Source of the DNA: Candidatus Saccharimonadota bacterium
GTDB taxonomy: Bacteria; Patescibacteriota; Saccharimonadia; Saccharimonadales; Saccharimonadaceae
Assembly: GCA_020160975.1 (NCBI GenBank)
Contig: JAIUPJ010000001.1
Location: 1 to 32,000 of the forward strand
Direction of reading: 5' to 3'
DNA: 32,000 nucleotides
Part shown: positions 13,301-28,054 of the stretch, in pieces
Layout: every line of letters begins with the position of its first letter
Position numbering within the stretch: the stretch's first letter is position 1
The notes under the pieces: model-generated
What the model was told of the DNA's origin: nothing
Database searches by the model: none
Seen by the model: the letters and a program-made list of their open reading frames with translations, nothing else
Program-made: the position numbers and the translations under genes

Positions 13301-14250
13301 AAGGTCTGCCACGTGTTGAAGAGCTATTTGAAGCTCGCAACCCGAAGGGTCAGGCTTACATGAGTGAAGTCACCGGTACGGTTGATACCTGGGAAGATGG
13401 CAAGAAGTATATTGTCCAGGTCACACCAGAAGCTGGCCATGTCGAACGCATGCCTCTTGAAGGCCGAACAGTTACTGTCAAATCTGGCAGCAATGTCAAG
13501 GTGGGCGATGTATTAGCAACTACCGACGGCGAAGCACACCCACTGGTCGCACCGTTTGATGGTGTGGTAGAAGTTGCCGAAGATACGATTGTAATCGCGG
13601 CTAACGCATCCGCGCCGGTTCGCTACGAAATTCCTGGCAACTCACAGCTTGTAGTCAAGAAGAATGACCGCGTAGAAGCGGGCGATCGCTTGACAATCGG
13701 CTCACTCAACCTGCATGACCTGATGCGGCTCAAGGGTACCGAAGCCACGCAGCGCTATATCATTAACGAAGTGTTGCGCATCTATGCCGCGCAGGGTCAA
13801 GATGTTGCCGACAAGCACCTCGAGATCATCGTGCGCCAGATGTTTAGCCGCGTGCAGATCGAAGACCCAGGCGATAGCGCCTTCGTGATGGGCGATATCG
13901 TATCAAAGGCAAGTATCGTTGACGCCAACACCATATTAGCCGCAGAGGGCAAAGAGCCTGCCCAGTATACGCAGCTGCTGCTTGGTATCACCAAGGTCAG
14001 TATCTGGAGTGACTCGTGGCTATCTGCCGCATCGTTCCAAGACACCACTCGTGTACTGATCAACGCTGCGACAAGTGGACGGGCCGATCGCCTAAACGGG
14101 CTTAAGGAGAACGTGATCATCGGACGCAAGATTCCTGTCGGAACTGGCGCACGTGTGCTGTCGGACGAGTTGACTCCTGAGGACGAGTATGTCGCTGATG
14201 TCGAGCTTGGCGACGAGGAGATAGGGGCAGACGTCGACCTCGAGTCGTAG
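10387..14250 (+). CDS. rpoC: DNA-directed RNA polymerase subunit beta'
   Basis: 1287 aa with catalytic [12 protein letters not shown] and [13 protein letters not shown]. The start lies 1 nt after the rpoB stop and is preceded by AAGGAGGAGG. Confidence 0.97.
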
Positions 14251-14270
14251 TCCCAAGATAAAACTCTCAC

Positions 14271-14304
14271 AAAATACCGCTCGCATGAGCGGTATTTTGT
14301 TTGG
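14271..14304. terminator. Bidirectional Rho-independent terminator between rpoC (+) and the 14317-15360 gene (-)
   Basis: AAAATACCGCTC (14271-14282) and GAGCGGTATTTT (14287-14298) form a 12-bp stem with a 4-nt loop. An A-run precedes it and a T-run follows. Confidence 0.85.
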
Positions 14305-14316
14305 AGGACTGGATAT

Positions 14317-15360
14317 CTAGATGGCGACAGTAGATTCTATGCCGTTGTTGTCGCATTTTTCACCGAGATAGGCTTTTTTCAGATCGAGAGTATTGTAGCT
14401 GTTGCAAGGGAGTACTTGTTGTGTACCAGTGAAGTAGTGCCATGTTTTGTCAGGAGTTTGATAAAACAGCTGTGCCGCACCGCCCGCACCCGCTTCGCCA
14501 TGCTCGTCAACACCGCCTGAACCGAGCTGGAGGGTTGTATAACCTGTTGACTTGCTAGGTTTCGCTTGCGATGGCGTACCAATCAAGGCTAATTGTACTA
14601 CCTTGAACGAAGCTGGAAATAGTTCGTAAAATGGCTGCAAGCTCTTGGCATTTGCTGTATAGACAGTCATATCTTGGCAGCCAGCCTCTACAAGGTGCTT
14701 ACCAGCAGGATTGTTGTAGGTTTTTATGGTGGCCACCCGGCAGACAACGTCTTTTTCGGCGTAATGGGCGACGTACATACTGTCAGCGTCGGTGCCTGGC
14801 TGGACGATTGTTTCAGCAAATCCCATTTCTTTGAGCGATTTGGCGATAGTTGCAGTCTCGACGCTTGATTGGTTGTAGGCGACTTCCTTTTGTGCGGCGG
14901 CTGCGGGCATTACGGTAGTAAAGAAATCATAGCCGGCCACCTTGATCGCTTGCATCATTGCATCGTTTTTCACGGTGTAGCCGGGAGTGATTTTGCTTAG
15001 TACGCTTGTTGCCGTAAGTTTCGGTGCTGTCTTCGACTGAGTAGTCTGCGTTGTGGTGCTAGCTGGCACTGGCGCGGGTTTCTCAATATATGCTTTGTAC
15101 ACGGTGAGTGCTGCTACGCCGCCGAGGGCTGCCATCAGGAGCGCGAGGAGCAGTACAAGTAGCGGTTTGCTGCGGCGTTTGGTCTTTTCTTTGGCGAGTT
15201 CATGACTGGTGGCGGCAAAGTCGTTGTCTCGCTTTACGTCGTCAAGCGAGTGATCGTTAGTAACCGACACGGTACCCTCTCTCTGTCCCATCGTTGCTCC
15301 TGTATGTTCACTATTGTCAGGAAGATTTTCGATTGCGTCTAATTTTTCTTCATCACTCAT
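14317..15360 (-). CDS. Membrane-anchored extracytoplasmic protein, unknown function
   Basis: Start placed at ATG 15360 (MSDEEKLD), with AAGGA 7 nt upstream and TATAAT further upstream; the track start at 15462 is unlikely. It has an acidic cytoplasmic N-terminus, one TM helix (KPLLVLLLALLMAALGGVAALTVY), a Thr/Ser/Pro linker and a Cys-containing outer domain. Confidence 0.7.
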   Translation of the reverse strand: MSDEEKLDAIENLPDNSEHTGATMGQREGTVSVTNDHSLDDVKRDNDFAATSHELAKEKTKRRSKPLLVLLLALLMAALGGVAALTVYKAYIEKPAPVPASTTTQTTQSKTAPKLTATSVLSKITPGYTVKNDAMMQAIKVAGYDFFTTVMPAAAAQKEVAYNQSSVETATIAKSLKEMGFAETIVQPGTDADSMYVAHYAEKDVVCRVATIKTYNNPAGKHLVEAGCQDMTVYTANAKSLQPFYELFPASFKVVQLALIGTPSQAKPSKSTGYTTLQLGSGGVDEHGEAGAGGAAQLFYQTPDKTWHYFTGTQQVLPCNSYNTLDLKKAYLGEKCDNNGIESTVAI

Positions 15361-15567
15361 ATCAATGTCCTTGATTATAATTATGGTTGTATTGTACGCC
15401 ACGGGGTGGACAAATGATAGATTTGTTGCTACACTGACAAATGAGTTTCTTTCTTGTGGCAATAGAGGCGAGTGTGAAGCAACTGTCGCCGCAGGAGACG
15501 TGAGTATGTGCTTGCTGCACGGTGCTCACAAAATAGCGAAGGCCTTTAGCAAGCCGAGTATGCGAAA

Positions 15568-15595
15568 GAATATAGAATATAGAATATAGAATAAT
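15568..15595. repeat. 7-bp tandem repeat (GAATATA x3 plus one imperfect copy GAATAAT)
   Basis: Read directly: GAATATA GAATATA GAATATA GAATAAT, in the divergent intergenic region about 20 nt upstream of the candidate rpsL -10 element. Confidence 0.9.
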
Positions 15596-15612
15596 GGTAA
15601 GAATGTAGCAAC

Positions 15613-15621
15613 TGCTATATT
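15613..15621 (+). promoter_or_regulatory. Extended -10 element TGcTATATT, candidate rpsL-rpsG promoter
   Basis: It has the same TGCTATA(A/T)T form as the elements upstream of fusA (20307-20315) and rpsJ (30482-30490). It lies 44 nt upstream of the rpsL ATG. SD GGAG is at 15654-15657. Confidence 0.4.
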
Positions 15622-15664
15622 CGATATACCGCATTCATATACTATTAATTTTCGGAGAAAATTA

Positions 15665-16078
15665 ATGCCTACAATTAATCAATTAGTGCGTAAGCCGCGC
15701 CAGTCTGCTGCGAAGAAGTCAAAGTCTCCTGCGCTTGGTCGCATTCATAACGCGCTCAAAGTCCGTTACTATGACCAGGATGCACCGCTCAAGCGCGGTG
15801 TGTGTGTCAAGGTAACCACCAAAACACCAAAGAAGCCTAACTCAGCCCTCCGTAAAGTAGCTCGTGTTCGCTTGACCAATGGTCACGAAGTCTGGGCATA
15901 CATCGGTGGCGAAGGCCACAACCTCCAGGAGCATGCCGTCGTGCTTGTTCGTGGTGGCCGTGTGCCAGACCTTCCAGGTGTACGTTACCATATCGTCCGT
16001 GGTGCACTCGACCTTCAGGGTGTTGCAAAACGTCAACAAGGCCGTTCAAAGTACGGTGCTAAGAAGGCGGAGAAATAA
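15665..16078 (+). CDS. rpsL: 30S ribosomal protein S12
   Basis: [12 protein letters not shown]...[19 protein letters not shown]...[10 protein letters not shown]...[21 protein letters not shown]. It is the Gram-positive-type long form. Confidence 0.97.
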
Positions 16079-16188
16079 GATGAGCGAATTCCCCAAAGCA
16101 CCAATTCCGCAAGAAGTACCTACACCTCAGTTGCCTGAACAGCAAGTCAATGACCCCACTTGTGAAGGTCTAGAATCGGAGAACGGCA

Positions 16189-16668
16189 ATGCCTAGAAAA
16201 GTTACCAAGAAACTACAGCGAACTATCAAGCCTGACCGCAAGTACCAGAGTGTACTCGTGCAGCGTTTGATCAACAAGAGTATGCTCGACGGCAAAAAAC
16301 TTGCCAGTGAGCGCATGGTCTACGCCGCGCTTGAGCAGGCAGCCAAGACCCTGAAGAGCGAAGAGCCACTTGAAGTGTTTGAGAAAGCCCTCAAGAACGT
16401 TTCGCCAAACTTCGAGGTCAAAAGTCGCCGTGTTGGCGGTGCGAACTACCAGATTCCGTTCCCTGTTCAGGGTCACCGTCAGCTGCACTACGCATTTAGC
16501 TGGCTCGTGCAATCAGCCCGTAGTCGTAGTGGTATCCCGTACGAAAAGCGCCTGGCGCTTGAAATCGTCGATGCCTACAACGAAACCGGTGCTGCCTTCA
16601 AGAAAAAGGAAGATACGCACAAGATGGCCGAAGCGAACCGCGCATTTGCGCACTTTGCTCGCGGATAA
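16189..16668 (+). CDS. rpsG: 30S ribosomal protein S7
   Basis: 159 aa with DRKYQSVLVQRLINKSMLDGKK...VKSRRVGGANYQIP...AFKKKEDTHKMAEANRAFAHF. SD GGAG lies 7 nt upstream. Confidence 0.97.
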   Translation: MPRKVTKKLQRTIKPDRKYQSVLVQRLINKSMLDGKKLASERMVYAALEQAAKTLKSEEPLEVFEKALKNVSPNFEVKSRRVGGANYQIPFPVQGHRQLHYAFSWLVQSARSRSGIPYEKRLALEIVDAYNETGAAFKKKEDTHKMAEANRAFAHFARG

Positions 16669-16672
16669 AATC

Positions 16673-16981
16673 ATGTCTGTTGAGCGACAACAGGGCCGAC
16701 CAACCGCAGAATACTTTACGGAGTCGGCCCTTCGCTTTTTAAGGGATGAATACTACTGGGTTAATCCTTTTAAAGGTGTGTATGAATACGATCACTCAAA
16801 ACGTGCTCTTGATATTGGCGTGATATGGCGTGAGTACCAGGCTGATGGACGAGTGCCAAGCGATAGCTTCGACCTCGAGTTTTTTTGCTCTTCGTCAACT
16901 AGCGCTCTATCATCCAAGCGCAAAGCCTGCGATATCAATGTGTCAGTAGAGCATTGCAATCCTTTGCCCTCTGCCTTATAA
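16673..16981 (+). CDS. Hypothetical 102-aa protein, first gene of the rpsG-fusA insert
   Basis: The ATG is 4 nt after the rpsG stop. It is the in-frame tail of track ORF 16370-16981; the upstream part of that ORF is an out-of-frame overlap with rpsG. The sequence is aromatic-rich and looks globular (FLRDEYYWVNPFKGVYEYDH...). No recognisable family. Confidence 0.5.
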   Translation: MSVERQQGRPTAEYFTESALRFLRDEYYWVNPFKGVYEYDHSKRALDIGVIWREYQADGRVPSDSFDLEFFCSSSTSALSSKRKACDINVSVEHCNPLPSAL

Positions 16982-16992
16982 CTATAAGCAGG

Positions 16993-18105
16993 ATGGGCGA
17001 GCAGCGAGTATCCAGAGTGCATTATGGCCAATCGATTCCAACAAATGGGTATGATGCGCTTGAAGCTGCACGTGCACTGCCACACGACCGCTGCGACAAA
17101 TCATTTACGTTTGACTACAATGCCGCCTACGGGCGGTATTTTCGTATCCAAAAGGTTTTGGTTGGCTCGAGCGGCTCGAGCGAACTTATCGACATCGCCA
17201 ATGAGCTTGCGGACACAAATCATCCTGACTATCTCAATGTGGCCGGTTGGTCGTACCTCGAGGCCGCGCTCAGCGGCGCAGAAGACTGTGCTATCGAGAG
17301 AATTGAATGTGTAGAGAAGGCCGAGTCCGCCTGGAAGCAAACACTTTCGATACTCGAAACAAACCCCATTTTTGCACCAGAGACCGGCAATGCCGACTAT
17401 GCCGACACACACCGTATAGCACTTAGCCTTGCTTATACTCCACTCGTCCGAGCCTTAATTGCAGGTAATATCACAGAGGCGGTACAAGAGCGCGTCTTTG
17501 CTGACACGCTTGCGATTGCCGAGCGATGCGTCATCGATCAGCATTTAGCGATGCAGCTGGAAGATGATGTAAAGCGGAGCGACGCACTGAGTGACTACAC
17601 GGGATTTCTTCATGAATGCAATTGTCTGCTGGCACTTCTTTACCGCAATGATCCGCAGCGAATTCCTATGCCCTCATCTGCGCGAGCTGGAAGTGGGCTT
17701 GAGTATGCTTCGGAGACCCATGACATTATGGTGATCCATCAAAAATGGGGGACGATCCACCGAACAACGCCGATTGAGGTCAAGTCACATTGTGGTACGC
17801 GCGAATACGATCGCTACAAGGCGCTTGTCGTGCGAGGCAAGGCGCATCTCTTGCCGCAAAACTTAGGCCATCATCACCCGTCACTGCTGGTTGAGGCATT
17901 TAGTGATACCTATAACTCTCATCAACCTGCGAGTCGCTCGCTCGATGCTTGTGATGCCGCAGCACGAGTGGTAGAACGACTACTCGTCGATTATCAAAAG
18001 AGCCAGCGTATCGATGAAGGTAGGGAGCGCAACACTCGCACGCATTTCCATGCCTCCCCCCATCTTGGCCGCTATGCCACGCGCGCAGACCTCCTCAGCG
18101 CCTGA
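16993..18105 (+). CDS. Hypothetical protein with a helical N-terminal region and a C-terminal PD-(D/E)XK-like nuclease signature
   Basis: About 370 aa. ATG 16993 lies 11 nt after the preceding stop; ATG 16954, which overlaps the previous ORF, is an alternative. In track numbering the motif is GFLHE221 ... THD257IMVIH ... x17 ... PIE275VK277S, followed by YDRYKALVVRGK. This is the order and spacing of restriction-endonuclease-fold motifs. Confidence 0.7.
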   Translation: MGEQRVSRVHYGQSIPTNGYDALEAARALPHDRCDKSFTFDYNAAYGRYFRIQKVLVGSSGSSELIDIANELADTNHPDYLNVAGWSYLEAALSGAEDCAIERIECVEKAESAWKQTLSILETNPIFAPETGNADYADTHRIALSLAYTPLVRALIAGNITEAVQERVFADTLAIAERCVIDQHLAMQLEDDVKRSDALSDYTGFLHECNCLLALLYRNDPQRIPMPSSARAGSGLEYASETHDIMVIHQKWGTIHRTTPIEVKSHCGTREYDRYKALVVRGKAHLLPQNLGHHHPSLLVEAFSDTYNSHQPASRSLDACDAAARVVERLLVDYQKSQRIDEGRERNTRTHFHASPHLGRYATRADLLSA

Positions 18106-18188
18106 TAGCATTGCAATCTTTGGCGTAGCGGCGTACACTAATCTCTATTATTACTGGGTGGTGGTAATCAAAAGCGGCGGGAGAAGAA

Positions 18189-20288
18189 ATGTCTGAAAGG
18201 GCGGTTATTCAACAAAACAAAGATGCAAAAGCGTTTGAAGCCTTTGCGCTCCATACTGACAAACATTACGATCCGGGAATCGCTGAGTTCCATCGTGCCG
18301 CCGTACGGGCCGAACAACTACTCCGAGATTCTGAAATAACTGTTGATGCCGAGGAGCTTCTCGACGAACTCAACCTTAAGTGGCCATTTCACGGACAAGA
18401 TATCACCGTGGCAGGAAGATTATATGTCTGCGGTGATATTGAACATATTGAGGAATATATCCTTGAAGCTCTTGGGACGCGCAAGCTCGATCACTGGGGT
18501 GAATACTTCGAAGTAGAGGATACGACACTTGTGTCGATGGGCGTAATCGATGCAAGCGCAACTGGTGATGATAGTAGTGAAGCATCGATAGTGTATGCGT
18601 ATGGACTTGACGAAGAGGATGCGGAACCAACCTTTATCGCTCGACTGGGCGACATTCATAGGGCCGAATACCCATATTCAACCTATGAAGGGTGTGTTGC
18701 CCACCTCAAATATGAGTACCCAGCAATCTATACAGACATAGTGCGTCTCATTACTCCAAATGTGTATGATATGAACAAACTCAATAATACCCTTCATTAT
18801 TTGGTGCAAACATATCCAGAAATTTGCGAGGACGATCGACTCGGTACTTGGGTATCAGTATTCATTACAAGACGCGCTAATTTCGATAAGCACACCACCT
18901 ACACATTTATGATGGAAGGAGAGATGATGCTTCCTGACGATGATGGTGACGAAACAGTATATTCAATTGTAGAACCGTATACTTTTGACGCAAAGATTAT
19001 GAGCATAGGATTCGGCACTATTGAGCGCGACGGCGAGACTGATGAAGCAGTCGCTAGCTATTTGTTGGCGCTTCCGAGCGGCATTAAGTCTGGAAGTGAG
19101 CACCTCGACTCCCAAGCAATCCTCCCTGTTAATTCAGTAATCACTGTTGAGCCGCGTCGGCCGGTCTTGTCTGTTCGCGAGCAGCTCGAGCGTGCGCAAC
19201 TTGATAAGGTTCGTCCTGCGCTCGCTCGTGCCGGGCTAATGAAGCTCGCTGATGTCGAAATGTCCGCACCCTATCAAGATGAAGAGGACAAGAAAGAAGT
19301 ACCTATTACAAAGCGTGAGCGATGGACAATGCTCCAGGCTCAGCTCGAAGATATGATTTCGAAAGTGAAGAAAGCACGTTCTCGTGATTATTCGGGCATC
19401 GAGGCTGCACACATCACGGCTCAGCATTTGGTAAATGAGTTTTATGCCTCATTAGGAGACCTTTCTGACACGCTACATCGAACGCTCATTGAAGTGGGAG
19501 GACGTGGAGTGTCAGTTCCACTCGTAAAGCTCGACCGCACGAGGACCGAAAGTGAAGATATTATCACCGTACGAGCAGACCTAGATGGCCTGAGAAACCC
19601 GGGGATTAGCCACGAAGTGAGGGGGACGTTGATTACGCTTGCAGCTTCGGTTCAAGAGCTCGATGATGATACCTACAAGCCAGCCGTATTCATGAGTCTT
19701 GATATGGGTAACTTGACGCGCAATATTGATATCGTCGCATTTGAAGAGCTTCCACTGGCAAAAATGCTCACAAGCCAGGCTGCACTCGTCAATCTTGACG
19801 GAACAGCAACGGTAGAAGTGAGCGGGCTGAAGTACGCAAACAGACGCGAAGAAATATTGCGTGAATTTCATCAAATGTGTCGAGCTAAGCAAGCAACTCG
19901 CGAGTTCGTCGCAATTCGCGCGCTAGATAAGGCAATCCACCGCGAGCTTGATTCGATGTCGATTCCGCTCGAAAATATTGCATTACTTGGTAATCTCCAC
20001 GATGTGATGCGATCTACCGAGCACGTAGATGATGTTGCACATGCGTTAAATGCCATTATGGGAGGTGGACGTATGCTTATCGTCAACGGTAATTTCATCG
20101 ATAAAGACGGTCAAGTGCTTGAAGCAAAAGACTATATGACATTTTGCGTTGATGTCGTGCACACTCTTCCGTTCAGCGATGAGCGCATACCGTCACTTGT
20201 TGTGATGCCAACCGGCATGCCGACAGGCACCAGTGAGGCACCAATGCACTATGTGCCTCTGCATAGCATTACAGCGTTGCAGTACTAG
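18189..20288 (+). CDS. Hypothetical 699-aa acidic protein, third gene of the rpsG-fusA insert
   Basis: A long uninterrupted ORF with SD GGGAG 7 nt upstream. I found no Walker A, HxH, DEAD or other catalytic motif by eye. There is a central charged helical segment (about aa 325-400) and the two flanking halves show by-eye similarity to each other. Confidence 0.8.
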   Translation: MSERAVIQQNKDAKAFEAFALHTDKHYDPGIAEFHRAAVRAEQLLRDSEITVDAEELLDELNLKWPFHGQDITVAGRLYVCGDIEHIEEYILEALGTRKLDHWGEYFEVEDTTLVSMGVIDASATGDDSSEASIVYAYGLDEEDAEPTFIARLGDIHRAEYPYSTYEGCVAHLKYEYPAIYTDIVRLITPNVYDMNKLNNTLHYLVQTYPEICEDDRLGTWVSVFITRRANFDKHTTYTFMMEGEMMLPDDDGDETVYSIVEPYTFDAKIMSIGFGTIERDGETDEAVASYLLALPSGIKSGSEHLDSQAILPVNSVITVEPRRPVLSVREQLERAQLDKVRPALARAGLMKLADVEMSAPYQDEEDKKEVPITKRERWTMLQAQLEDMISKVKKARSRDYSGIEAAHITAQHLVNEFYASLGDLSDTLHRTLIEVGGRGVSVPLVKLDRTRTESEDIITVRADLDGLRNPGISHEVRGTLITLAASVQELDDDTYKPAVFMSLDMGNLTRNIDIVAFEELPLAKMLTSQAALVNLDGTATVEVSGLKYANRREEILREFHQMCRAKQATREFVAIRALDKAIHRELDSMSIPLENIALLGNLHDVMRSTEHVDDVAHALNAIMGGGRMLIVNGNFIDKDGQVLEAKDYMTFCVDVVHTLPFSDERIPSLVVMPTGMPTGTSEAPMHYVPLHSITALQY

Positions 20289-20306
20289 AATTATCTTCAA
20301 AAATCT

Positions 20307-20315
20307 GCTATAATT
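20307..20315 (+). promoter_or_regulatory. Extended -10 promoter TGcTATAAT for fusA
   Basis: It lies in the AT-rich 101-nt gap after the 699-aa gene. SD GAAGGAAG lies upstream of ATG 20390. Confidence 0.5.
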
Positions 20316-20389
20316 TTATGCAAGTGCTATTTTTTATGGCAAAAAATCGTTAAGGGAATAATTTTAAGAGAAGGAAGAGTAATACTCGC

Positions 20390-22483
20390 ATGGCAACTCC
20401 AAAGAACGTCCCCCTAAAGGACTTCCGAAACATCGGTATTATCGCGCACATTGACGCTGGTAAGACCACGACTACCGAAGGTATTTTGTACCGAACCGGT
20501 ATTAATCACAAAATTGGTGAAGTCCGTGGCGACGGCGACGGCGCGACCACTGACTGGATGGCTCAGGAAAAAGAGCGCGGTATCACCATTACTTCTGCTG
20601 CGGTCACATGCTTTTGGAAGGGCCACAAAATTAACATTATCGACACGCCGGGTCACATCGACTTTACGGCCGAGGTGGAGCGCTCACTGCGCGTCCTCGA
20701 CGGCGCAGTGACGGTGTTTGACGGCAAGATGGGCGTTGAAGCGCAGTCTGAGACAGTTTGGCGTCAGGCAAACAAATACGGCGTACCTCGTGTCTGTTTC
20801 ATCAACAAAATCAACCAAACTGGCGGTGACTTCTACAAGTCACTCCAGAGCATCCACACGCGTCTTTCTAAGAACGCGCTGCCGGTACATCTCCCAATTG
20901 GCTTTGAAAAAGACATCAATGGCGTGGTTGACTTGATCGAAATGAAGGCCTATACCTATAACGACTTCACCGACAAAGCACTTGTCGAAGGCGACATTCC
21001 CGCCGACATGGTAGAAAAAGCGACTAACGCCCGAGCACTGCTGGTGGAAGCAGCAGTTGAAGCCGAAGACGAGCTTATGGAGAAGTTCTTTGAAGGTGGT
21101 GTCGAGGCGATCAGTAAAGAAGAGCTCAAGCGAGCTCTCCGCAAGCGTGTCCTCGCGGGCGACTTCTTCCTAGTGACGGGCGGCGATGGCCGTGGTGTGA
21201 TTGTTGAGAAGCTGCTCGACATCATGACTGACTACCTGCCAAGTCCACTCGATGTTGACGCCATCTGGGGCAAAAACCCGAAGAATGGCGACGAAGTATC
21301 ACGCAAGCCAGAAGACAAAGAGCCGATGGCAGCGCTAGCCTTCAAGCTCGCAACTGACCCATTTGTCGGTAAGTTGATTTTTGTACGCGTGTACTCTGGC
21401 GTGTTGACAGCAGGAAGCTACGTACTCAACACGACCACTGGCGAAAAGGAACGTGTTGGTCGTATCGTGCGTATGCACGCCGATAAGCGCGAAGAAATCG
21501 ACAAGGTTGGTGCCGGTGACATCGCGGCGGTGGTGGGCCTCAAGGGGACTTTCACTGGCCATACGCTTTGTGACCCTGCACATCCAATTGCCCTCGAAGC
21601 AATCACTTTCCCAGATCCACCGGTATCGATCGCGGTTGAGCCAAAGACAAAAGCCGACCAAGAGAAAATGGGTATTGCGCTACAGCGCCTGGCCGAGGAA
21701 GACCCAACCTTCCGCATCCACACCGACGAAGAGACGGGACAAACCATCATGTCTGGAATGGGCGAGCTTCACCTCGAAATTCTCGTCGACCGTATGAAGC
21801 GCGAGTTCAACGTCGAGGCTAATGTCGGAGAGCCACAAGTCGCCTTCCGTGAAACTATCAAAGCGACTGCCGAAGTGCAAGGAAAGCATGCCAAGCAGTC
21901 TGGTGGACGCGGTCAATACGGTGACGTTTGGGTGCGATTTGAACCAAACGAGCCAGGCAAGGGCTTCGAGTTTATTGATGCTATCAAGGGCGGTGTGGTG
22001 CCGCAAGAGTACCGCCCAGCTGTTCAAAAAGGTATTCGTGAAACGCTCGACGGTGGTGTTATCGCCGGCTACCCAGTGGTTGATGTCAAGGCAACACTCT
22101 ACGACGGTAGCTATCACGATGTTGACTCGTCTGAACTCGCCTTTAACCTGGCTGGTAGTTTGGCTGCACGCGAGGGTGTGAAGAAAGCCAGCCCAATCCT
22201 GCTCGAGCCAGTCATGCATGTCGAAGTAACGACACCAGAAGAATTCATGGGTGACATCATCGGAGACCTCAACAGCCGCCGTGGCCGTATTGAGTCGATG
22301 GAAGACCTCATGGGTGGCGCAAAGCTTATCAAGGCAATTGTGCCGCTGGCCAGCATGTTTGGCTACACCGGCGATATTCGTAGTATGTCCCAGGGTCGCG
22401 CAGCCAGCACCATGGAGCTCGCGCACTATGAGGAAGTACCACCAAACGTCGCGCAGGAGATCATCGAAAAGCGCAGCAAATAG
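20390..22483 (+). CDS. fusA: Elongation factor G
   Basis: 697 aa with [12 protein letters not shown] (G1), DTPGHIDF (G3) and NKINQ (G4, a variant of NKxD), plus domain IV and V segments. Confidence 0.97.
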
Positions 22484-22496
22484 CACAGAAACTTCC

Positions 22497-22524
22497 GGCC
22501 GCCTCTCATAACGAGGCGGTTTTG
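22497..22524 (+). terminator. Rho-independent terminator after fusA
   Basis: CCGCCTC (22499-22505) and GAGGCGG (22513-22519) form a stem with a 7-nt loop, followed by TTTT. Confidence 0.8.
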
Positions 22525-22531
22525 GTATAAT
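22523..22531 (+). promoter_or_regulatory. Extended -10 promoter TGgTATAAT placed for a leaderless transcript of the 22538 gene
   Basis: TATAAT is at 22526-22531, followed by 6 nt (GACCAC) and then ATG 22538. There is no SD. Confidence 0.5.
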
Positions 22532-22537
22532 GACCAC

Positions 22538-23122
22538 ATGAAGCGAAGCTATAGCAGTCTCAGTCTCGTCTGGGCGCTGGTCGGAACAGGTGTAATCGGT
22601 CTATCTCTCAGCATGGTGCTGACGAGCGATCAGAGGTGGTTGGAGTGGCATATTAGCCGATTGGGCGAAGGAAGCGGTCTGGCTGCAGCGATATTTAATT
22701 TCTCGCTCTCACTTGCTGGACTTATCCTTGTGCTCATCACGATGCGTATGACCGATGAAATTCGTCACCGCAACCCAAACAGTTCGGTGACAGCGCTACG
22801 CGCCCTACTACTACTCACAGCGGTGTGCTGGATAGGCGTCGCCTGCTTTCCGTTCGATCGATTTAAGCTCATTCACTGGATCTTCGGCTATACGCAGTTT
22901 TTCGTGATTGGGTTCCTGATGTTACGGCTCAAGCACCTCACTGCGGCATTTAGCGCTCGTACTCATGCGATCGGTCTGATGAGTGCACTGGTGGTGGCGA
23001 TTCTGATGGGGCTCCACCACACTATCCATCTTCTGCCGCTCCTCACCGTCGAGCTGGTCGGCGAGCTGGCGGTCTTTATCTGGCTTCTCTCGATGGCTTA
23101 TGATCAAAAACCCTCTCGTTAA
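22538..23122 (+). CDS. Polytopic membrane protein (tentatively DUF998-like)
   Basis: 194 aa with about 6 hydrophobic helices. The segment ISRLGEGSGLAAAIFNFSLSLAGL resembles the DUF998 signature as I remember it; this is unverified. Confidence 0.7.
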   Translation: MKRSYSSLSLVWALVGTGVIGLSLSMVLTSDQRWLEWHISRLGEGSGLAAAIFNFSLSLAGLILVLITMRMTDEIRHRNPNSSVTALRALLLLTAVCWIGVACFPFDRFKLIHWIFGYTQFFVIGFLMLRLKHLTAAFSARTHAIGLMSALVVAILMGLHHTIHLLPLLTVELVGELAVFIWLLSMAYDQKPSR

Positions 23123-23184
23123 GCTTTGTTTAAGCTCATTTTTTTAAGATGAGTACGACAAGGATATAAAGGAAAAGATACCTC

Positions 23185-23502
23185 ATGGCAAAAGAAATTA
23201 TCACAAAAGAAGTCACCGAAGAAGTTGCAACGCCGCCTATAGCTACAACTGAGAGTGTCATCCATACGGATACCACTTCCATCAACCGCTCACTGATTAT
23301 TGCAGTAGGGGCATCGGTAGTGCTATTCATTATTGGGATGGTCCTCGGCTATCTTCTCGGCCGCGTTACCTCGGGAGGTAATCATGGCAGGATGATGGAC
23401 GGCCATTACCGCACATTCGATCGCGATACAGGAGGACGCCTTCGCCAAAGCCAATCAACAGGCACCCAAAGTAGCAGTAACACTTCAACACAGGCACAAT
23501 AA
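23185..23502 (+). CDS. Small single-pass membrane protein with a Ser/Thr/Gln-rich tail
   Basis: 105 aa with the TM helix LIIAVGASVVLFIIGMVLGYLLG. Its stop TAA directly abuts the next ATG (TAAATG at 23500-23505), suggesting translational coupling. Confidence 0.5.
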   Translation: MAKEIITKEVTEEVATPPIATTESVIHTDTTSINRSLIIAVGASVVLFIIGMVLGYLLGRVTSGGNHGRMMDGHYRTFDRDTGGRLRQSQSTGTQSSSNTSTQAQ

Positions 23503-24024
23503 ATGGACGCCAAGAACAAAATCTTTACCGTCATTGGGTCAATAGCGCTGATTGCTGCGACGGCGACTGGTGGATATCTGCTCCTTACCGCGCCTACTGG
23601 CAATACTGTTGCGACCTCATCGAATACACAAGCCGTCACTCGGTCAACTGCAGAATCGGCCACCAACACTCCGTCCACAAGTACCAGTGAATCAACAGGT
23701 GCAGCTGACACAACGACAACGAGCTCGTACAAAGATGGTACCTACACTGCTACTGCCAGCTATAGCGTACCGCATGGAGAGCAAAACTCGATCGCCGCCG
23801 AAGTAACAGTTGCTGACGGTAAGATTGTCTCAGTTAAAACAACCGACAACTATAGCGACCACGAGTCGGCTATGTATATCAGCGGTTTTGAGTCGAGTGT
23901 GAACAGTAGCGCAAGAGATCAGTTGCTTGCTACCTACAGTCCAAGCCGTATCGGCGGCGCGAGTCTCACGACTGCTGCTTTTGGCGATGCATTGGATATG
24001 ATTCGCTCCCAAGCGATGGCGTAG
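23503..24024 (+). CDS. Membrane-anchored extracytoplasmic FMN-binding-domain protein (probable ApbE substrate)
   Basis: It has an N-terminal anchor IFTVIGSIALIAATATGGYLLL and a Thr/Ser linker. This is followed by DGTYTATASY...AAEVTVADGKIVSVKTTDNYSDHES and the C-terminal RIGGASLTTAAFGDAL. The last segment resembles the FMN_bind flavinylation motif (D-x-x-[ST]-G-A-[ST]), with GGAS in place of SGAT. Confidence 0.72.
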   Translation: MDAKNKIFTVIGSIALIAATATGGYLLLTAPTGNTVATSSNTQAVTRSTAESATNTPSTSTSESTGAADTTTTSSYKDGTYTATASYSVPHGEQNSIAAEVTVADGKIVSVKTTDNYSDHESAMYISGFESSVNSSARDQLLATYSPSRIGGASLTTAAFGDALDMIRSQAMA

Positions 24025-24032
24025 GCGGTCGG

Positions 24033-24923
24033 ATGATAGTGCTGTACGAATTTGATGCAATCGGTACTCACTGGTGGATTGAACTACTAGACGGTAGCCA
24101 CTTTGATGAAGCACTCGTTCATCGCATCAAAAAGACAGTGCAGCAGTTTGATCTTCGCTATTCTCGCTTCCTCGATGAGTCATTGGTGAGCGAGCTCTAT
24201 CGCACTGGCAGCCTCAGTCACCCGCCAGCCGAGATGATACGCATGCTCGAATTTGCGAGGGAAATGCAGGAGGTTTCGGAAGGCGCTTTCGATATTTCAG
24301 TAGGCAACACACTTCATCGGATGGGCTATGGCAAACGGTCAGTTGCAGGCTCGGTCGCCACACTATCTTTTTGGGATCACCTCACCCTTACCCCCATGCA
24401 AATCCTTCTGTTTCCGCCCATTGCTAAAGGCAACGTACCGCTAGCAGAAGGTGAAAAGGGAAATAATGCGAGAGGGATTATGTTGGATTTTGGTGGGTTT
24501 GGCAAGGGGTGGCTGATCGACCAGTTAGTACGTGATTTAAAATTGGCTGGCAAACATGAATTTATCGTCAACGGCGGAGGAGATCTCTATGTTCGTGCCA
24601 AAAAACCGATACGTATCGCTCTCGAGGACCCGATGAATGCAACATCATCGCTCGGCTATGTCGACATCATTCACGGAGCACTGGCAGGGAGCAACACGAT
24701 CAAGCGCGTATGGCAGGATGGCAGCGATACAAAGCATCATATCATTGATCCGTTGACAGATGACTCGAGCGCGACTGGCGTAATCGCCAGTTTTGTCATG
24801 GCCGATTCGGCATTGATAGCCGATGCCATGGCGACGATTCTGATCTTGCGGCCAGCGCTAGAAGAAAAATTGAAACACGCCTACAATCTGCAGACAGTTT
24901 TGATAAGAAAAGAAGCCCCGTAA
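24033..24923 (+). CDS. apbE: FAD:protein FMN transferase (ApbE family)
   Basis: 296 aa with ApbE-like blocks: GAFDISVG, DFGGFGKGWLIDQ, VNGGGDLY, KHHIIDPLT and ADAMATIL. Confidence 0.87.
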   Translation: MIVLYEFDAIGTHWWIELLDGSHFDEALVHRIKKTVQQFDLRYSRFLDESLVSELYRTGSLSHPPAEMIRMLEFAREMQEVSEGAFDISVGNTLHRMGYGKRSVAGSVATLSFWDHLTLTPMQILLFPPIAKGNVPLAEGEKGNNARGIMLDFGGFGKGWLIDQLVRDLKLAGKHEFIVNGGGDLYVRAKKPIRIALEDPMNATSSLGYVDIIHGALAGSNTIKRVWQDGSDTKHHIIDPLTDDSSATGVIASFVMADSALIADAMATILILRPALEEKLKHAYNLQTVLIRKEAP

Positions 24924-24953
24924 CGTGGGCTAGGCGACCGCAAAAACGGCAGG

Positions 24954-25235
24954 CTACACTTCAACATCACTTGCAGACGGCTCTCCTCTCCTGATCCAGT
25001 CATCAACGCGATTGATCACCGTGATAGCTACAAAGTATAGGCAAGTGATCAGGAGCACGAACACGCAGAAGAGACCGCAGAATGCAACGAATTTCACAGC
25101 CGAGAGCAGGATAGTTGCGTACGACAGCCCTCCCTTGGCATGGAGAGCCCAGACGGTAAGGCCGATAAGCGGTGTGTAGCGGGCGACACGGACAGCGTTC
25201 TTGCGTGCTCGCTGGGTGCGGAGGTACTTGGACAT
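24954..25235 (-). CDS. Small (93 aa) membrane protein, unknown function
   Basis: AGGAA lies 4-5 nt upstream of the ATG. It has a basic N-terminus, hydrophobic helices and the C-terminal RVDDWIRRGE (compare the 5334-5597 product). It is co-oriented with and downstream of the NOX-like gene. Confidence 0.58.
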   Translation of the reverse strand: MSKYLRTQRARKNAVRVARYTPLIGLTVWALHAKGGLSYATILLSAVKFVAFCGLFCVFVLLITCLYFVAITVINRVDDWIRRGEPSASDVEV

Positions 25236-25343
25236 AGCTTTCCTATCTGTAGAGTGCAGTCCTTGCCCGAATGATACAATGCTTTTTTGCTATCTGTAAA
25301 TAGCAGGTATCTTTGCTAAACTCAAGAACCTAGAACGTAACTC

Positions 25344-26645
25344 TCACCAACCGAATTTCTCGCTATATATATGTGAAGCGGGGACGCCAAGCGAGATAAT
25401 GGCAGACCTCGCTGTGCTCATCATTGCGTCTGGGCCACAGAGATAGTAAGTATAGCGAGTTGGGCTGTCGAGGTGTTTTCTCAGCAATTCGGCGGTGATA
25501 TGTCCGTTTGCTTCCCCTGGCGGTAGCTCATGGCTACCTTGGCTGAAGACCGTTACCGCATGACTACCAAGTCGTTCTTTGAGCGGTGCATACAGAACGG
25601 CCAGTTCACGATTACGATGTGCGGTAAATAGCCATTGTTCACGGTGCGAGGACTCACTCATGATCCGGTCAACAAAGGGTGTAACGCCGATACCTCCGGC
25701 GATATAGACAACGGGTGTAGAAGGTGCTCGATCAATCGAATCAGTAAATTGTCCATACGGCCCACCTAGCAGAACAAAATCGCCCTCAGCTAGTGCCTCA
25801 ATCTCCTTGCTGTACATACCTGCACGACGCACGCCTAGCGTAATATCACCTGACTTTTTGTTATACTGCACAACGCTGAATGGGTGATCCTCGCTGATGA
25901 ATCCAAGTTTGACGTAGACATACTGGCCGCGACGAGGAACAAGACGATGCTGGCCGGCTGGGCTCAGCTTGAGTAGAGTATCAAGTCCTGTCAACGTCGT
26001 ACGATGCACTACTTTATAGGGTAGCTTATCGAGGTTAAGCCAGCTGCGGAGGCGCAGAATCGAGATAAGGATGTAGATTATCATCAGCGTGGACAGGTAG
26101 GCTTTGATCCAAAGATGTGTCTGCACTTGAGCGCCAAGATCTGGAACATGTAGTAGTGCGAACGGAATCGCCAGATATGCCAGCCAGTGCAGGTACCGCC
26201 AGGTCCGCCAGCTTAGCTTGCCACGCACCACGGCAGAGCTTACCCAAAGGACAATAAGCGCCCAGAGCGCAACCTGCCCAAGCATAATATGTCGCTCAGT
26301 GAGCGTCGTGAACTGCGGGATAAACGAATACAGCCAGCTTTCGCCATAGCCGATGGTCACGAGCACAGGGTGGACAAAGATCAGCAGAGTGCCATAGATG
26401 CCGAGGTATTTGTGGATAGCGAGACTAGCGGCGAGGTCTGTGGTCAGAAATCGGCTGATGGATTTTGCGCCGAGGATATACATCCAGAGTAGGAGCGTTA
26501 TGCCGCTGTAGCCACAGATGGCCGAGCTCCAGAGTAGAAGCGCACTTGCAGACCACATCACTGGTAGCGGAACAATGAACAGTGGCGACACTATCGTCAC
26601 CGTGATTGCTGAAATAAGAAGGATGCGCTTAGGTAAATCACTCAT
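25344..26645 (-). CDS. NOX/ferric-reductase-family membrane flavocytochrome (6-TM bis-haem domain plus FAD/NAD(P)H dehydrogenase domain)
   Basis: TM helices HKYLGIYGTLLIFVH (H-x13-H) and HWLAYLAIPFALLH (H-x12-H). Also HPFSV (FAD), GGIGVTPF (NAD(P)H) and YLCGPDAMM (FNR-type CGP). Start placed at ATG 26645 (track: GTG 26651), with TATAGT 9 nt upstream. Confidence 0.87.
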   Translation of the reverse strand: MSDLPKRILLISAITVTIVSPLFIVPLPVMWSASALLLWSSAICGYSGITLLLWMYILGAKSISRFLTTDLAASLAIHKYLGIYGTLLIFVHPVLVTIGYGESWLYSFIPQFTTLTERHIMLGQVALWALIVLWVSSAVVRGKLSWRTWRYLHWLAYLAIPFALLHVPDLGAQVQTHLWIKAYLSTLMIIYILISILRLRSWLNLDKLPYKVVHRTTLTGLDTLLKLSPAGQHRLVPRRGQYVYVKLGFISEDHPFSVVQYNKKSGDITLGVRRAGMYSKEIEALAEGDFVLLGGPYGQFTDSIDRAPSTPVVYIAGGIGVTPFVDRIMSESSHREQWLFTAHRNRELAVLYAPLKERLGSHAVTVFSQGSHELPPGEANGHITAELLRKHLDSPTRYTYYLCGPDAMMSTARSAIISLGVPASHIYSEKFGW

Positions 26646-26732
26646 GCTCACTGCACTATACAGGGCCCATGCTTAAACGAATATTAAAACTTTGGCAGGC
26701 GCTCCTATGCTCAGTACGACACATGAAAAGTG

Positions 26733-26869: not shown

Positions 26870-28054
26870 ATGGCAGACTTCGACCGAAGCAAGCCCCACG
26901 TTAACGTCGGTACTATGGGCCACGTTGACCACGGTAAAACAACTCTCACCGCAGCAATTACTGCTGTACTCGCTAAGAAGCTTCCTAGCGATGTAAACAA
27001 GCCTGTCGCATACGACCAGATCGACAACGCTCCAGAAGAAAAAGCACGTGGTATCACTATCGCTTCTTCTCACCAGGAATACGAATCAGAGAAGCGTCAC
27101 TACGCGCACGTTGACATGCCAGGACACGCCGACTACGTCAAGAACATGATCACTGGTGCGGCTCAAATCGACGGTGCTATCCTCGTGGTAGCAGCAAACG
27201 ATGGCCCATTGCCGCAGACTCGTGAGCACGTTCTGCTTGCTCACCAAGTTGGCGTGCCAAAGATCGTCGTCTTCCTCAACAAGATGGACCTCGCTGATCC
27301 TGAGCTGGTTGAGCTGGTTGAGATGGACGTTCGTGAACTACTTACCAAGAACGGCTACGACGGTGACAACGCGCCAATCATCAAGGGCTCTGCAACCAAG
27401 GCTCTCGAGGGTGACGCGGCTTCAGAAGACGCAGTCATGGAACTCGTCAAAGCGATTGATGATTACATCGACGAGCCACAGCGCGATCTCGACAAGCCAT
27501 TCTTGATGCCGATCGAAGACGTCTTCTCTATCAAGGGTCGTGGTACGGTTGCCACTGGCCGTATCGAGCAGGGTGTCATCAAGATCAACGATGCAGTTGA
27601 AATTGTTGGTCTCAAGGCAACTCAACAATCTGTTGTAACCGGCATCGAGGCCTTCAAAAAGAACCTCGACCAAGGTCAAGCAGGCGACAACGCCGGTCTT
27701 CTCCTCCGCGGTATCGAGCGCGAGCAGATCGAGCGCGGTCAGGTTGTGGTCAAGCCAGGTAGCTTGACACCACACACTGAATTCGACGCTGAAGTCTATA
27801 TCCTCAAAAAGGAGGAAGGCGGACGACACACACCATTTAGCAAGGGCTACAAGCCGCAGTTCTACTTCCGCACGACTGACGTCACCGGCGAAGTTGAGCT
27901 GCCAGCTGACAAAGAAATGGTCATGCCAGGCGACCAAGTTACCTTCAAGGTAAAACTGCTCGCTCCAATCGCCATGGACAAAGGTCAAGACTTTGCCATC
28001 CGCGAAGGTGGTCGTACTGTTGGCGCTGGTGTTGTCACCAACATCACAAAATAG
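26870..28054 (+). CDS. tuf: Elongation factor Tu
   Basis: 394 aa with [18 protein letters not shown] and NKMD, and typical domains II and III. Confidence 0.98.

Follow-up and report, generated by a model that had tools for sequence, protein, structure and literature searches.

A variable slot between rpsG and fusA in Saccharibacteria, with genes for a candidate PD-(D/E)XK nuclease and a large acidic protein

Outside Saccharibacteria, the adjacency of rpsG and fusA within the str operon (rpsL-rpsG-fusA-tuf) is near-universal. Why do three additional genes lie between rpsG and fusA in a member of this lineage, how are they likely to be transcribed, and what could their products do? We addressed these questions in positions 1-32,000 of the forward strand of contig JAIUPJ010000001.1 from a Candidatus Saccharimonadota bacterium (GCA_020160975.1); this whole 32,000-nt stretch is called the window below. 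Saccharibacteria are ultra-small epibionts with genomes of less than 1 Mb, and their lineage-specific genes are mostly without an assigned function. The window contains, in this order, rpoB, rpoC, one minus-strand gene, rpsL, rpsG, ORF1 to ORF3, and fusA, and the closest relatives of its rpsG all belong to Saccharibacteria (Saccharimonadales, Nanosynbacter-like). An initial annotation, made from the nucleotide sequence, had reported three co-oriented open reading frames (ORFs) of 102, 370, and 699 aa between rpsG and fusA, and their coordinates and spacings were confirmed (Table 1). Window proteins are entered in databases as hypothetical proteins LCH21_00075 and LCH21_00080 of 'Patescibacteria group bacterium', and a literature search for a cassette locus between rpsG and fusA found no description.

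The slot between rpsG and fusA in relatives

We retrieved 80 related species loci for comparison and measured the rpsG-fusA gap over 87 loci. Several genomes had a gap of 13-45 bp, three had one of 173 bp, and members of a deeper clade had gaps of 244-654 bp; in about 25 it spanned 0.7-5.7 kb and held assorted genes. The window has a gap of 3.7 kb with the three co-oriented ORFs. About 25 further genomes had neither fusA nor tuf within 10 kb of rpsG, and the 10 kb past rpsG in L019, L048, and about 23 other loci (L numbers denote loci of relatives) carried TMEM175-like, Dus, ABC-F, GAPDH, Rpe, PfkB, and enolase genes instead. The varied gaps and the absence of fusA and tuf near rpsG show that the rpsG-fusA adjacency is labile in Saccharibacteria, and the spot directly after rpsG is a recurrent rearrangement breakpoint. 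The initial annotation had started from a conserved str adjacency and had asked whether the interval is normally empty and shorter than 200 bp. The gene order is indeed kept in the window but is loose in the lineage, and the short interval exists in some relatives but gives way to much longer ones elsewhere.

The insertion is not confined to this genome: ORF2- and ORF3-type genes recur at the same site in many, though not all, Saccharibacteria. ORF3-type genes were located in the rpsG-fusA slot at 18 of 18 loci wherever the flank was visible, most often just 5' of the fusA promoter, either as full-length copies (the window, L001, L003, L088, L090, L095, L105), as N-half genes (L010, L021, L028, L030, L099, L100, L104), or as C-half genes (L015, L094, L099, L102, L103). 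ORF2-type genes occupied the slot at 11 of the 12 informative loci, with an ORF3-type gene immediately downstream at seven, and cargo of both types was always on the rpsG/fusA strand. L105 repeated the ORF2-ORF3-fusA layout at 36% (ORF2) and 22% (ORF3) identity. The thought that the same genes might sit here in all relatives as a known operon extension was borne out only in part, because many relatives have them but not all, and the extension is not a known one. With high confidence, we regard ORF2 and ORF3 as the most characteristic cargo of the slot, restricted to Saccharibacteria and found in the fixed order ORF1, ORF2, ORF3, fusA. Other cargo comprised YajQ/DUF520 (the commonest single occupant in other genomes), alpha-amylase, trypsin-like protease, pilin-like, and PAP2 genes and many unknowns, and the cargo always lay between the rpsG stop and the fusA promoter.

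fusA had been assigned a promoter of its own, and this -10 box (TGCTATAAT) was confirmed and is kept in 28 related loci. A TCTGnTATAAT box preceded fusA at every gap of 173 bp or more, empty 173-bp sites included, and was missing at gaps of 13-45 bp. The box combined with a T6-N5-A6 dyad (GCTATTTTTTATGGCAAAAAAT) occurred once in the window (20304-20347) and also at 27 other loci (e.g. L023, L100, L105). Across loci, 75% of the dyad helix was paired and 5 of its 10 pairs showed double changes; RNAalifold gave no stable consensus fold for this fusA-leader dyad, and an Rfam scan of 14000-24000 found no RNA family. The dyad could be a 5'-leader hairpin, the start of the fusA transcript, or a protein operator.

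Promoters and terminators were analyzed by consensus scans. On the plus strand between the -10-like box upstream of rpsL (15613-15621) and the fusA box (20306-20314), there was no TGnTATAAT-type -10 box, even when one mismatch was allowed. The absence of a terminator from 16669-20288, already reported in the initial annotation, also held on the plus strand: no convincing terminator was found, the sole candidate being a 5-bp stem at 16719-16734 inside ORF1, and the region contained 14 terminator-like elements against 8.1 +/- 2.3 expected. ORF1-3 share one strand and have short or coupled junctions, and these scans showed neither a promoter nor a convincing terminator within them, as is usual for genes of one transcription unit. 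Read-through from the rpsL promoter is the probable source of their transcripts, a proposal that the layout fits, and the box upstream of rpsL is presumed to drive an rpsL-rpsG-ORF1-3 transcript.

Divergence of the cassette was discordant with that of its flank. Between the window and L092, L003, and L088, ORF3 was 90%, 47%, and 25% identical, respectively, whereas EF-G was 92%, 93%, and 94% identical. In the comparison with L092, synonymous divergence (dS) was 0.39-0.48 for ORF2 and ORF3 and 1.43 for fusA, and nucleotide identity was 85-97% from ORF2 to about 180 nt into fusA (95-97% just before the drop) and 72-84% thereafter. This drop indicates a recombination breakpoint inside fusA. Taken against close relatives, the ratio of nonsynonymous to synonymous divergence (dN/dS) of ORF2 and ORF3 was 0.08-0.17, which shows that they are functional genes; purifying selection acts within allele lineages of the cassette. 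Very probably, then, the str operon of these bacteria is cut at the rpsG|fusA junction, with a permissive, recombination-accessible slot upstream of the fusA promoter. According to this account, fusA of the lineage would have gained its own TGnTATAAT promoter and dyad element, the slot genes would be read through from the rpsL promoter, and the cargo would be swapped between lineages via homologous recombination in the flanking genes.

Natural deletion alleles were found at three loci (L106-L108). In these alleles ORF2 is lost from about aa 87 and ORF3 is lost up to about aa 465, namely, most of ORF2 and two thirds of ORF3, and what remains matches the undeleted relative L093 at 100% identity. 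Many 237-aa products fall in the 90%-identity cluster of ORF3; at least 10 distinct remnant products of this length are recorded, and the deletion allele occurs in several samples. The deletion alleles show that the cassette is dispensable and polymorphic within populations. It is accessory: missing from many relatives, deeply divergent among alleles, and deleted in near-identical strains. These observations bear on a translation-linked function, which the initial annotation had put forward and in which ORF2 and ORF3 would be lineage-specific ribosome- or EF-G-associated factors (e.g. in mRNA or rRNA quality control). Such a function would suit the close, phylum-wide association with fusA and rpsG, on one strand and separated by short spacers, as well as an acidic ORF3 that is near EF-G in size and charge. 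We nevertheless consider it very improbable, given the 2.3-kb deletions in otherwise identical strains, the lack of the cassette in many relatives (among them the ones whose gap is 13-45 bp), an ORF3 that is 25% identical where EF-G is 94% identical, and searches that detected neither a GTPase, S1, or KH domain nor any other domain linked to translation. Deletion alleles, patchy distribution, and allele divergence together all but rule out that the cassette is essential or encodes a translation factor.

A variable island between conserved genes is a known kind of feature. Here, conserved core genes bound one site, the cargo differs among relatives, and exchange and loss are evident from discordant divergence, the breakpoint, and presence/absence polymorphism. 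The slot resembles core-gene-flanked hotspots and replacement flexible genomic islands in its fixed site, conserved flanks, differing cargo, and divergent alleles, and also in flank recombination (the breakpoint inside fusA) and in its empty (173 bp) and deleted states. It differs from them in that the flanks are two genes of the str operon, the cargo apparently borrows a ribosomal-protein promoter, and two families are tied to one site phylum-wide with no recognised defence system; no integrase or transposase domain was found in the slot cargo and no tRNA nearby. What appears to be new is the location within a ribosomal operon, the pair of protein families, and their phylum-wide fixation at one address. 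That the str operon is split throughout the lineage is relevant to operon-based annotation and to the use of phylogenomic markers in the Candidate Phyla Radiation. An origin of the cassette from a phage or plasmid was also considered and was ruled out by a tblastn search against phage and plasmid records, which gave no match.

Slot proteins and exchange of the upstream partner

ORF1-3 were scanned against Pfam, NCBIfam, PHROGs, and PADLOC (PADLOC-DB v2), and none had a match (at E <= 1 for ORF1-3 in PADLOC and for ORF2 in all four). Profile and structure searches with ORF2 and ORF3 were likewise empty. None of the three proteins belongs to a described family, in agreement with the earlier remark that, apart from a nuclease-like motif in the middle one, they resemble no recognised family. 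A homologue search with a 62-sequence alignment returned just five proteins, all known beforehand.

The start of ORF2 at ATG 16993 is backed by the N-termini of homologues (MGE...), whereas the alternative start 'ATG 16954' mentioned in the initial annotation is in fact a TTG codon. ORF2 had 14 homologues among 5.8 billion proteins, 8 more were obtained from metagenome contigs, and an IMG/VR scan gave no relatives. The AlphaFold (AF2) model (pLDDT 76, pTM 0.82) consists of a helical domain (aa 18-217) and a PD-(D/E)XK-like core (aa 192-285, nt 17566-17847). The core comprises a helix (192-217), strands (223-227, 243-251, 254-264), a short helix, and another strand (278-281), and this predicted alpha-beta-beta-beta-alpha-beta order is that of the PD-(D/E)XK core. 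The nuclease-like motif that had been noticed in this protein is well supported, as E208, H243-D244, Q250, E262, and K264 are invariant in 23 of 23 ORF2-type sequences, down to 32% identity, and E208 is predicted on alpha1, D244 on beta2, and E262 and K264 on beta3. No sequence or profile likeness to a described member family of PD-(D/E)XK nucleases was found: Foldseek of the model against PDB and BFVD gave no match with E < 1e-3 and all TM-scores were < 0.3, the profile against PDB sequences yielded noise alone, and a Pfam scan of all 15 members of the ORF2 alignment gave nothing consistent. The motif and the predicted topology thus fit a PD-(D/E)XK nuclease.

ORF3 is represented by five close homologues, and a profile search of 1.84 billion cluster representatives extended the family to 183 clusters at 50% identity. 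Most clusters are about 700 aa in size, and some correspond to the N-part or the C-half (about 340 aa) alone. The family is uniformly acidic (median pI 4.6). In the model (pLDDT 87), two lobes are joined by a linker. An hhalign comparison (probability 79%, E 1.7e-5) reveals an internal duplication, each lobe having a helical-plus-beta module whose last strand is 'vP(L/V)xSI'; the conserved C-terminal motif of the protein is a buried beta-strand that is repeated in the N-half. Foldseek of the model against PDB gave no match with E < 1e-3 and all TM-scores were < 0.3, the profile against PDB sequences produced noise alone, and Pfam scans of 10 distant homologues and of all alignment members showed no consistent signal. 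Neither ORF2 nor ORF3 has a transmembrane segment or signal peptide, which is typical of cytoplasmic proteins.

ORF1 has one homologue, a distant one at L010 (E 9e-6), which likewise directly follows rpsG. Conservation of ORF1 is limited to a core of residues 1-71; the tail varies, with a frame change past codon 71 in L093 and L106. The dN/dS of ORF1 was 0.28, calculated from just 6 differences.

Co-occurrence of ORF2 and ORF3 in other genomes is partial: they are adjacent at the seven loci mentioned above, but each also occurs alone (ORF3 without ORF2 at L001, L003, and L094; ORF2 without ORF3 at L097, L005, and L006). At five loci the place upstream of the ORF3-type gene is filled by F264, a family of about 264 aa unrelated to ORF2. 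Its residues H99, H100, R123, H137, N138, and H141 are invariant (HH...R...HNxxH), in a spacing atypical for HNH or His-Me finger; it had no Pfam match, and its profile against PDB sequences gave noise. The invariant residues suggest that F264 is a metal-dependent, possibly His-Me-finger enzyme. hhalign showed no relationship of F264, F225, ORF1, or the small ORFs of L005 and L003 with ORF2 or ORF3, and F375 had weak similarity to the ORF3 C-half (26% probability).

This distribution also bears on the addiction function suggested initially. In a module of that kind, ORF2 would act as a nuclease toxin and be held in check by the acidic ORF3 or by ORF1. Since each of ORF2 and ORF3 is also found alone, a strict toxin-antitoxin pair is unlikely. 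Besides, known antitoxins are far smaller than ORF3 (699 aa), which moreover is often split, ORF1 does not accompany ORF2 as a conserved partner, and neither PADLOC nor toxin-antitoxin families gave a match. A nuclease beside a strongly acidic partner is what such a system would look like, and orphan ORF3-type genes could be orphan immunity genes; the deletion allele, which takes out ORF2 and ORF3 together, is uninformative in this respect. On balance, we hold a toxin-antitoxin function to be improbable.

A tentative conflict module and other functional readings

Among the functional readings, we rank first a nuclease-based conflict or defence module composed of ORF2 and ORF3, although only tentatively and with less than even confidence. 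In such a module, ORF2 would be an active, metal-dependent PD-(D/E)XK nuclease with a helical N-domain that either binds to ORF3 or is under its control, and ORF3 would be a large acidic, pseudo-dimeric, non-enzymatic subunit for variable recognition or regulation. The module might target phage, mobile DNA, or competing strains, and riding on a ribosomal-protein transcript would provide its constitutive expression. We favour this reading because of the invariant nuclease site, the variable partner, the exchangeable upstream gene, the fission and fusion of ORF3, the exchanged ancient alleles, and the presence/absence polymorphism, a combination that conflict systems usually display. The size, diversity, and uniform acidity of the ORF3 family and the purifying selection within allele lineages are further traits counted in its favour. 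That ORF2 (or F264) and ORF3 constitute a Saccharibacteria-specific immune or conflict system, hard-wired into the str operon and diversified via rpsG/fusA recombination, we put forward as a rather doubtful possibility.

Several observations weigh against a conflict module. The defence role considered in the initial annotation is still plausible, but PADLOC detected no resemblance of ORF1-3 to any known defence protein, and among 103 slot ORFs of relatives it gave incidental matches alone (GlgB-like, protease, and LmuA in one member). Defence genes are normally mobile, and one fixed address within one phylum without phage or plasmid copies is unusual for them. The same slot holds ordinary cargo (YajQ, alpha-amylase, protease, pilin-like, PAP2), and ORF2 and ORF3 can each be present alone. 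Sliding-window analysis of dN/dS revealed no window > 1 (none > 0.53) and so gave no sign of ongoing positive selection between close alleles. No ATPase, sensor, or enzymatic motif can be recognised in ORF3, whose fold had no match in the searches. Finally, co-transcription of ORF1-3 with rpsL-rpsG is what we infer from the nucleotide sequence.

The same ordinary cargo, which is often metabolic or housekeeping and includes the nucleotide-binding YajQ/DUF520 (also beside ORF2 in L004), would be in line with accessory nucleic-acid metabolism. ORF2 would then process imported DNA or RNA in salvage, competence, or recombination, ORF3 would be a scaffold or regulator, and co-expression with ribosomal proteins would reflect growth demand. 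Saccharibacteria depend on nucleotide salvage, and the invariant catalytic residues, the purifying selection, and the cytoplasmic nature of both proteins also agree with this. On the other hand, a salvage enzyme is unlikely to exist as 25-40% identical alleles among close relatives, to be swapped for a His-rich protein, or to be deleted within a population, and we judge such a role unlikely.

Deep allelic divergence, recombination, and presence/absence polymorphism could equally reflect host-range adaptation if ORF2 and ORF3 were an effector pair delivered to, or acting on, the actinobacterial host. The confinement of both families to Saccharibacteria and the pilin-like and DUF5907/BppL_N genes in the slot of some relatives would be consistent with host interaction. 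The proteins, however, have no secretion signal or transmembrane segment, no secretion genes are linked to them, and the conserved C-terminal motif of ORF3 is a buried strand rather than a tail signal. An effector function therefore seems to us quite unlikely.

The conflict module would be comparable in architecture with Shedu (SduA), Hachiman (HamA/HamB), and Lamassu (LmuA/LmuB), which likewise combine a D...ExK core, a non-catalytic N-terminal domain, and a large partner; the replacement of ORF2 by F264 at the effector position in some loci would be another likeness. It differs from these systems in having no PADLOC sequence match and in an ORF3 without helicase, SMC, or ATPase motif or a known fold, and we offer the comparison as a lead. 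Should ORF2 and ORF3 indeed act together in immunity or conflict, they would make up a new system, newly wired as a passenger of a ribosomal-protein transcript. Irrespective of function, two sizeable protein families are now defined, with a precise genomic address, a conserved order, natural null alleles, and allele exchange, and ORF3 has a confident model without known relatives; these families are unusually tractable targets.

Coordinates and neighbouring features

The positions of the genes, elements, and alleles are listed in Table 1.

Table 1. Features of the rpsG-fusA locus (window coordinates unless another locus is named)
Feature	Position	Strand	Remarks
Extended -10-like box upstream of rpsL (TGCTATATT)	15613-15621	+	One mismatch to TGNTATAAT; 44 nt 5' of rpsL ATG
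rpsL (S12)	15665-16078	+	Pfam PF00164, E 7e-36
38-aa ORF	16080-16196	+	Within lineage-specific 110-nt rpsL|rpsG spacer (16079-16188)
rpsG (S7)	16189-16668	+	Pfam PF00177, E 2e-53
ORF1 (102 aa)	16673-16981	+	ATG 4 nt past rpsG stop; no family match
Direct repeat, copy 1 (AGCATTGCAATCCTTTGC)	16950-16967	+	26 nt 5' of ORF2 ATG; also in L093
ORF2 (370 aa)	16993-18105	+	Starts 11 nt past ORF1 stop
Segment deleted in natural alleles L106-L108	17251-19585	+	2,335 bp; TGG microhomology at junction (5012-5014 of L106-L108)
Direct repeat, copy 2 (AGCATTGCAATCTTTGGC)	18107-18124	+	Begins 2 nt past ORF2 stop
ORF3 (699 aa)	18189-20288	+	83 nt past ORF2; GGGAG Shine-Dalgarno sequence 9 nt 5' of ATG
ORF3 N-half (aa 1-346)	18189-19226	+	Net charge -36; stand-alone gene of ~320-335 aa in relatives
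ORF3 disordered acidic linker (aa 347-367)	19227-19289	+	pLDDT < 50; most variable part between close alleles
ORF3 C-half (aa 368-699)	19290-20288	+	Ends in conserved YVPLxxIxxLx[FY] strand; stand-alone gene of ~340-365 aa in relatives
fusA promoter -10 element (TCTGCTATAAT)	20304-20314	+	T, A and T positions invariant in 28 loci
Dyad (GCTATTTTTT-ATGGC-AAAAAAT)	20326-20347	+	Conserved; ~8 nt past -10 box
fusA (EF-G)	20390-22483	+	Pfam E 2e-54; first ~180 nt within recombined block common to L092
F264 member, L010	3845-4639		
F264 member, L028	12947-13738		
F264 member, L030	10570-11253		
F264 member, L088	4311-5105		
F264 member, L090	2007-2795		

The G+C content at third codon positions (GC3) was 0.45 for ORF1, 0.52 for ORF2, and 0.45 for ORF3, compared with 0.57-0.61 for rpoB, rpoC, rpsG, fusA, and tuf and 0.49 for rpsL. 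The composition of ORF1-3 departs mildly from that of the neighbours, in line with the earlier remark that it is not obviously foreign.

The two 18-nt direct repeats are identical at 16 of 18 positions (12 exact) and bracket ORF2 exactly. They may mark the junctions of an old insertion. The repeat is present in L093 and not at other ORF2 loci, and its score of 12 compares with a shuffle maximum of 10 in the flanks; being lineage-specific and barely above chance, it was not used as evidence for a mobile cassette.

The window keeps the gene order of the canonical str operon on one strand. It differs from the canonical operon in that all junctions are enlarged (110 nt with the 38-aa ORF, 3.7 kb, and 4.4 kb) and in that fusA has an independent conserved promoter. 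The 38-aa ORF starts 2 nt past the rpsL stop, and its end overlaps the rpsG start. In L093 (309-517), which is 97% identical overall, the rpsL|rpsG spacer carries a different, unrelated 65-aa ORF, and in most relatives the gap is 2-5 nt; this spacer looks like a second small variable slot. The fusA|tuf junction is open too, with tuf at 26870-28054, 4.4 kb past fusA, and five genes between them (22538-26651): a DUF998 membrane protein, two small unknown ORFs, an ApbE-like gene, and a minus-strand ferric-reductase-like gene. Upstream of rpsL, a 7-nt unit (TATAGAA) is repeated three times in tandem at 15571-15591, about 20 nt 5' of the -10-like box.

Some further observations concern the slot in relatives. 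The sole ORF2 homologue found outside the slot is in L004 (6374-7974), with YajQ/DUF520 immediately 3' of it, which suggests that ORF2 and YajQ left the slot together. In L093 (2517-4615), a 1-nt indel near the ORF3 start splits the gene into 49-aa and 626-aa products, reflecting either an assembly error or incipient decay. In slot-ORF alignment A7, one member matches PADLOC LmuA (E 2e-8), and single members match PDC-M35A and PD-Lambda-5_A. Minus-strand genes with weak DUF5907 / BppL_N (phage receptor-binding-like) similarity share the slot with ORF3-type genes in L028 (10956-12815), L090 (616-1821), and L094 (5913-6830).

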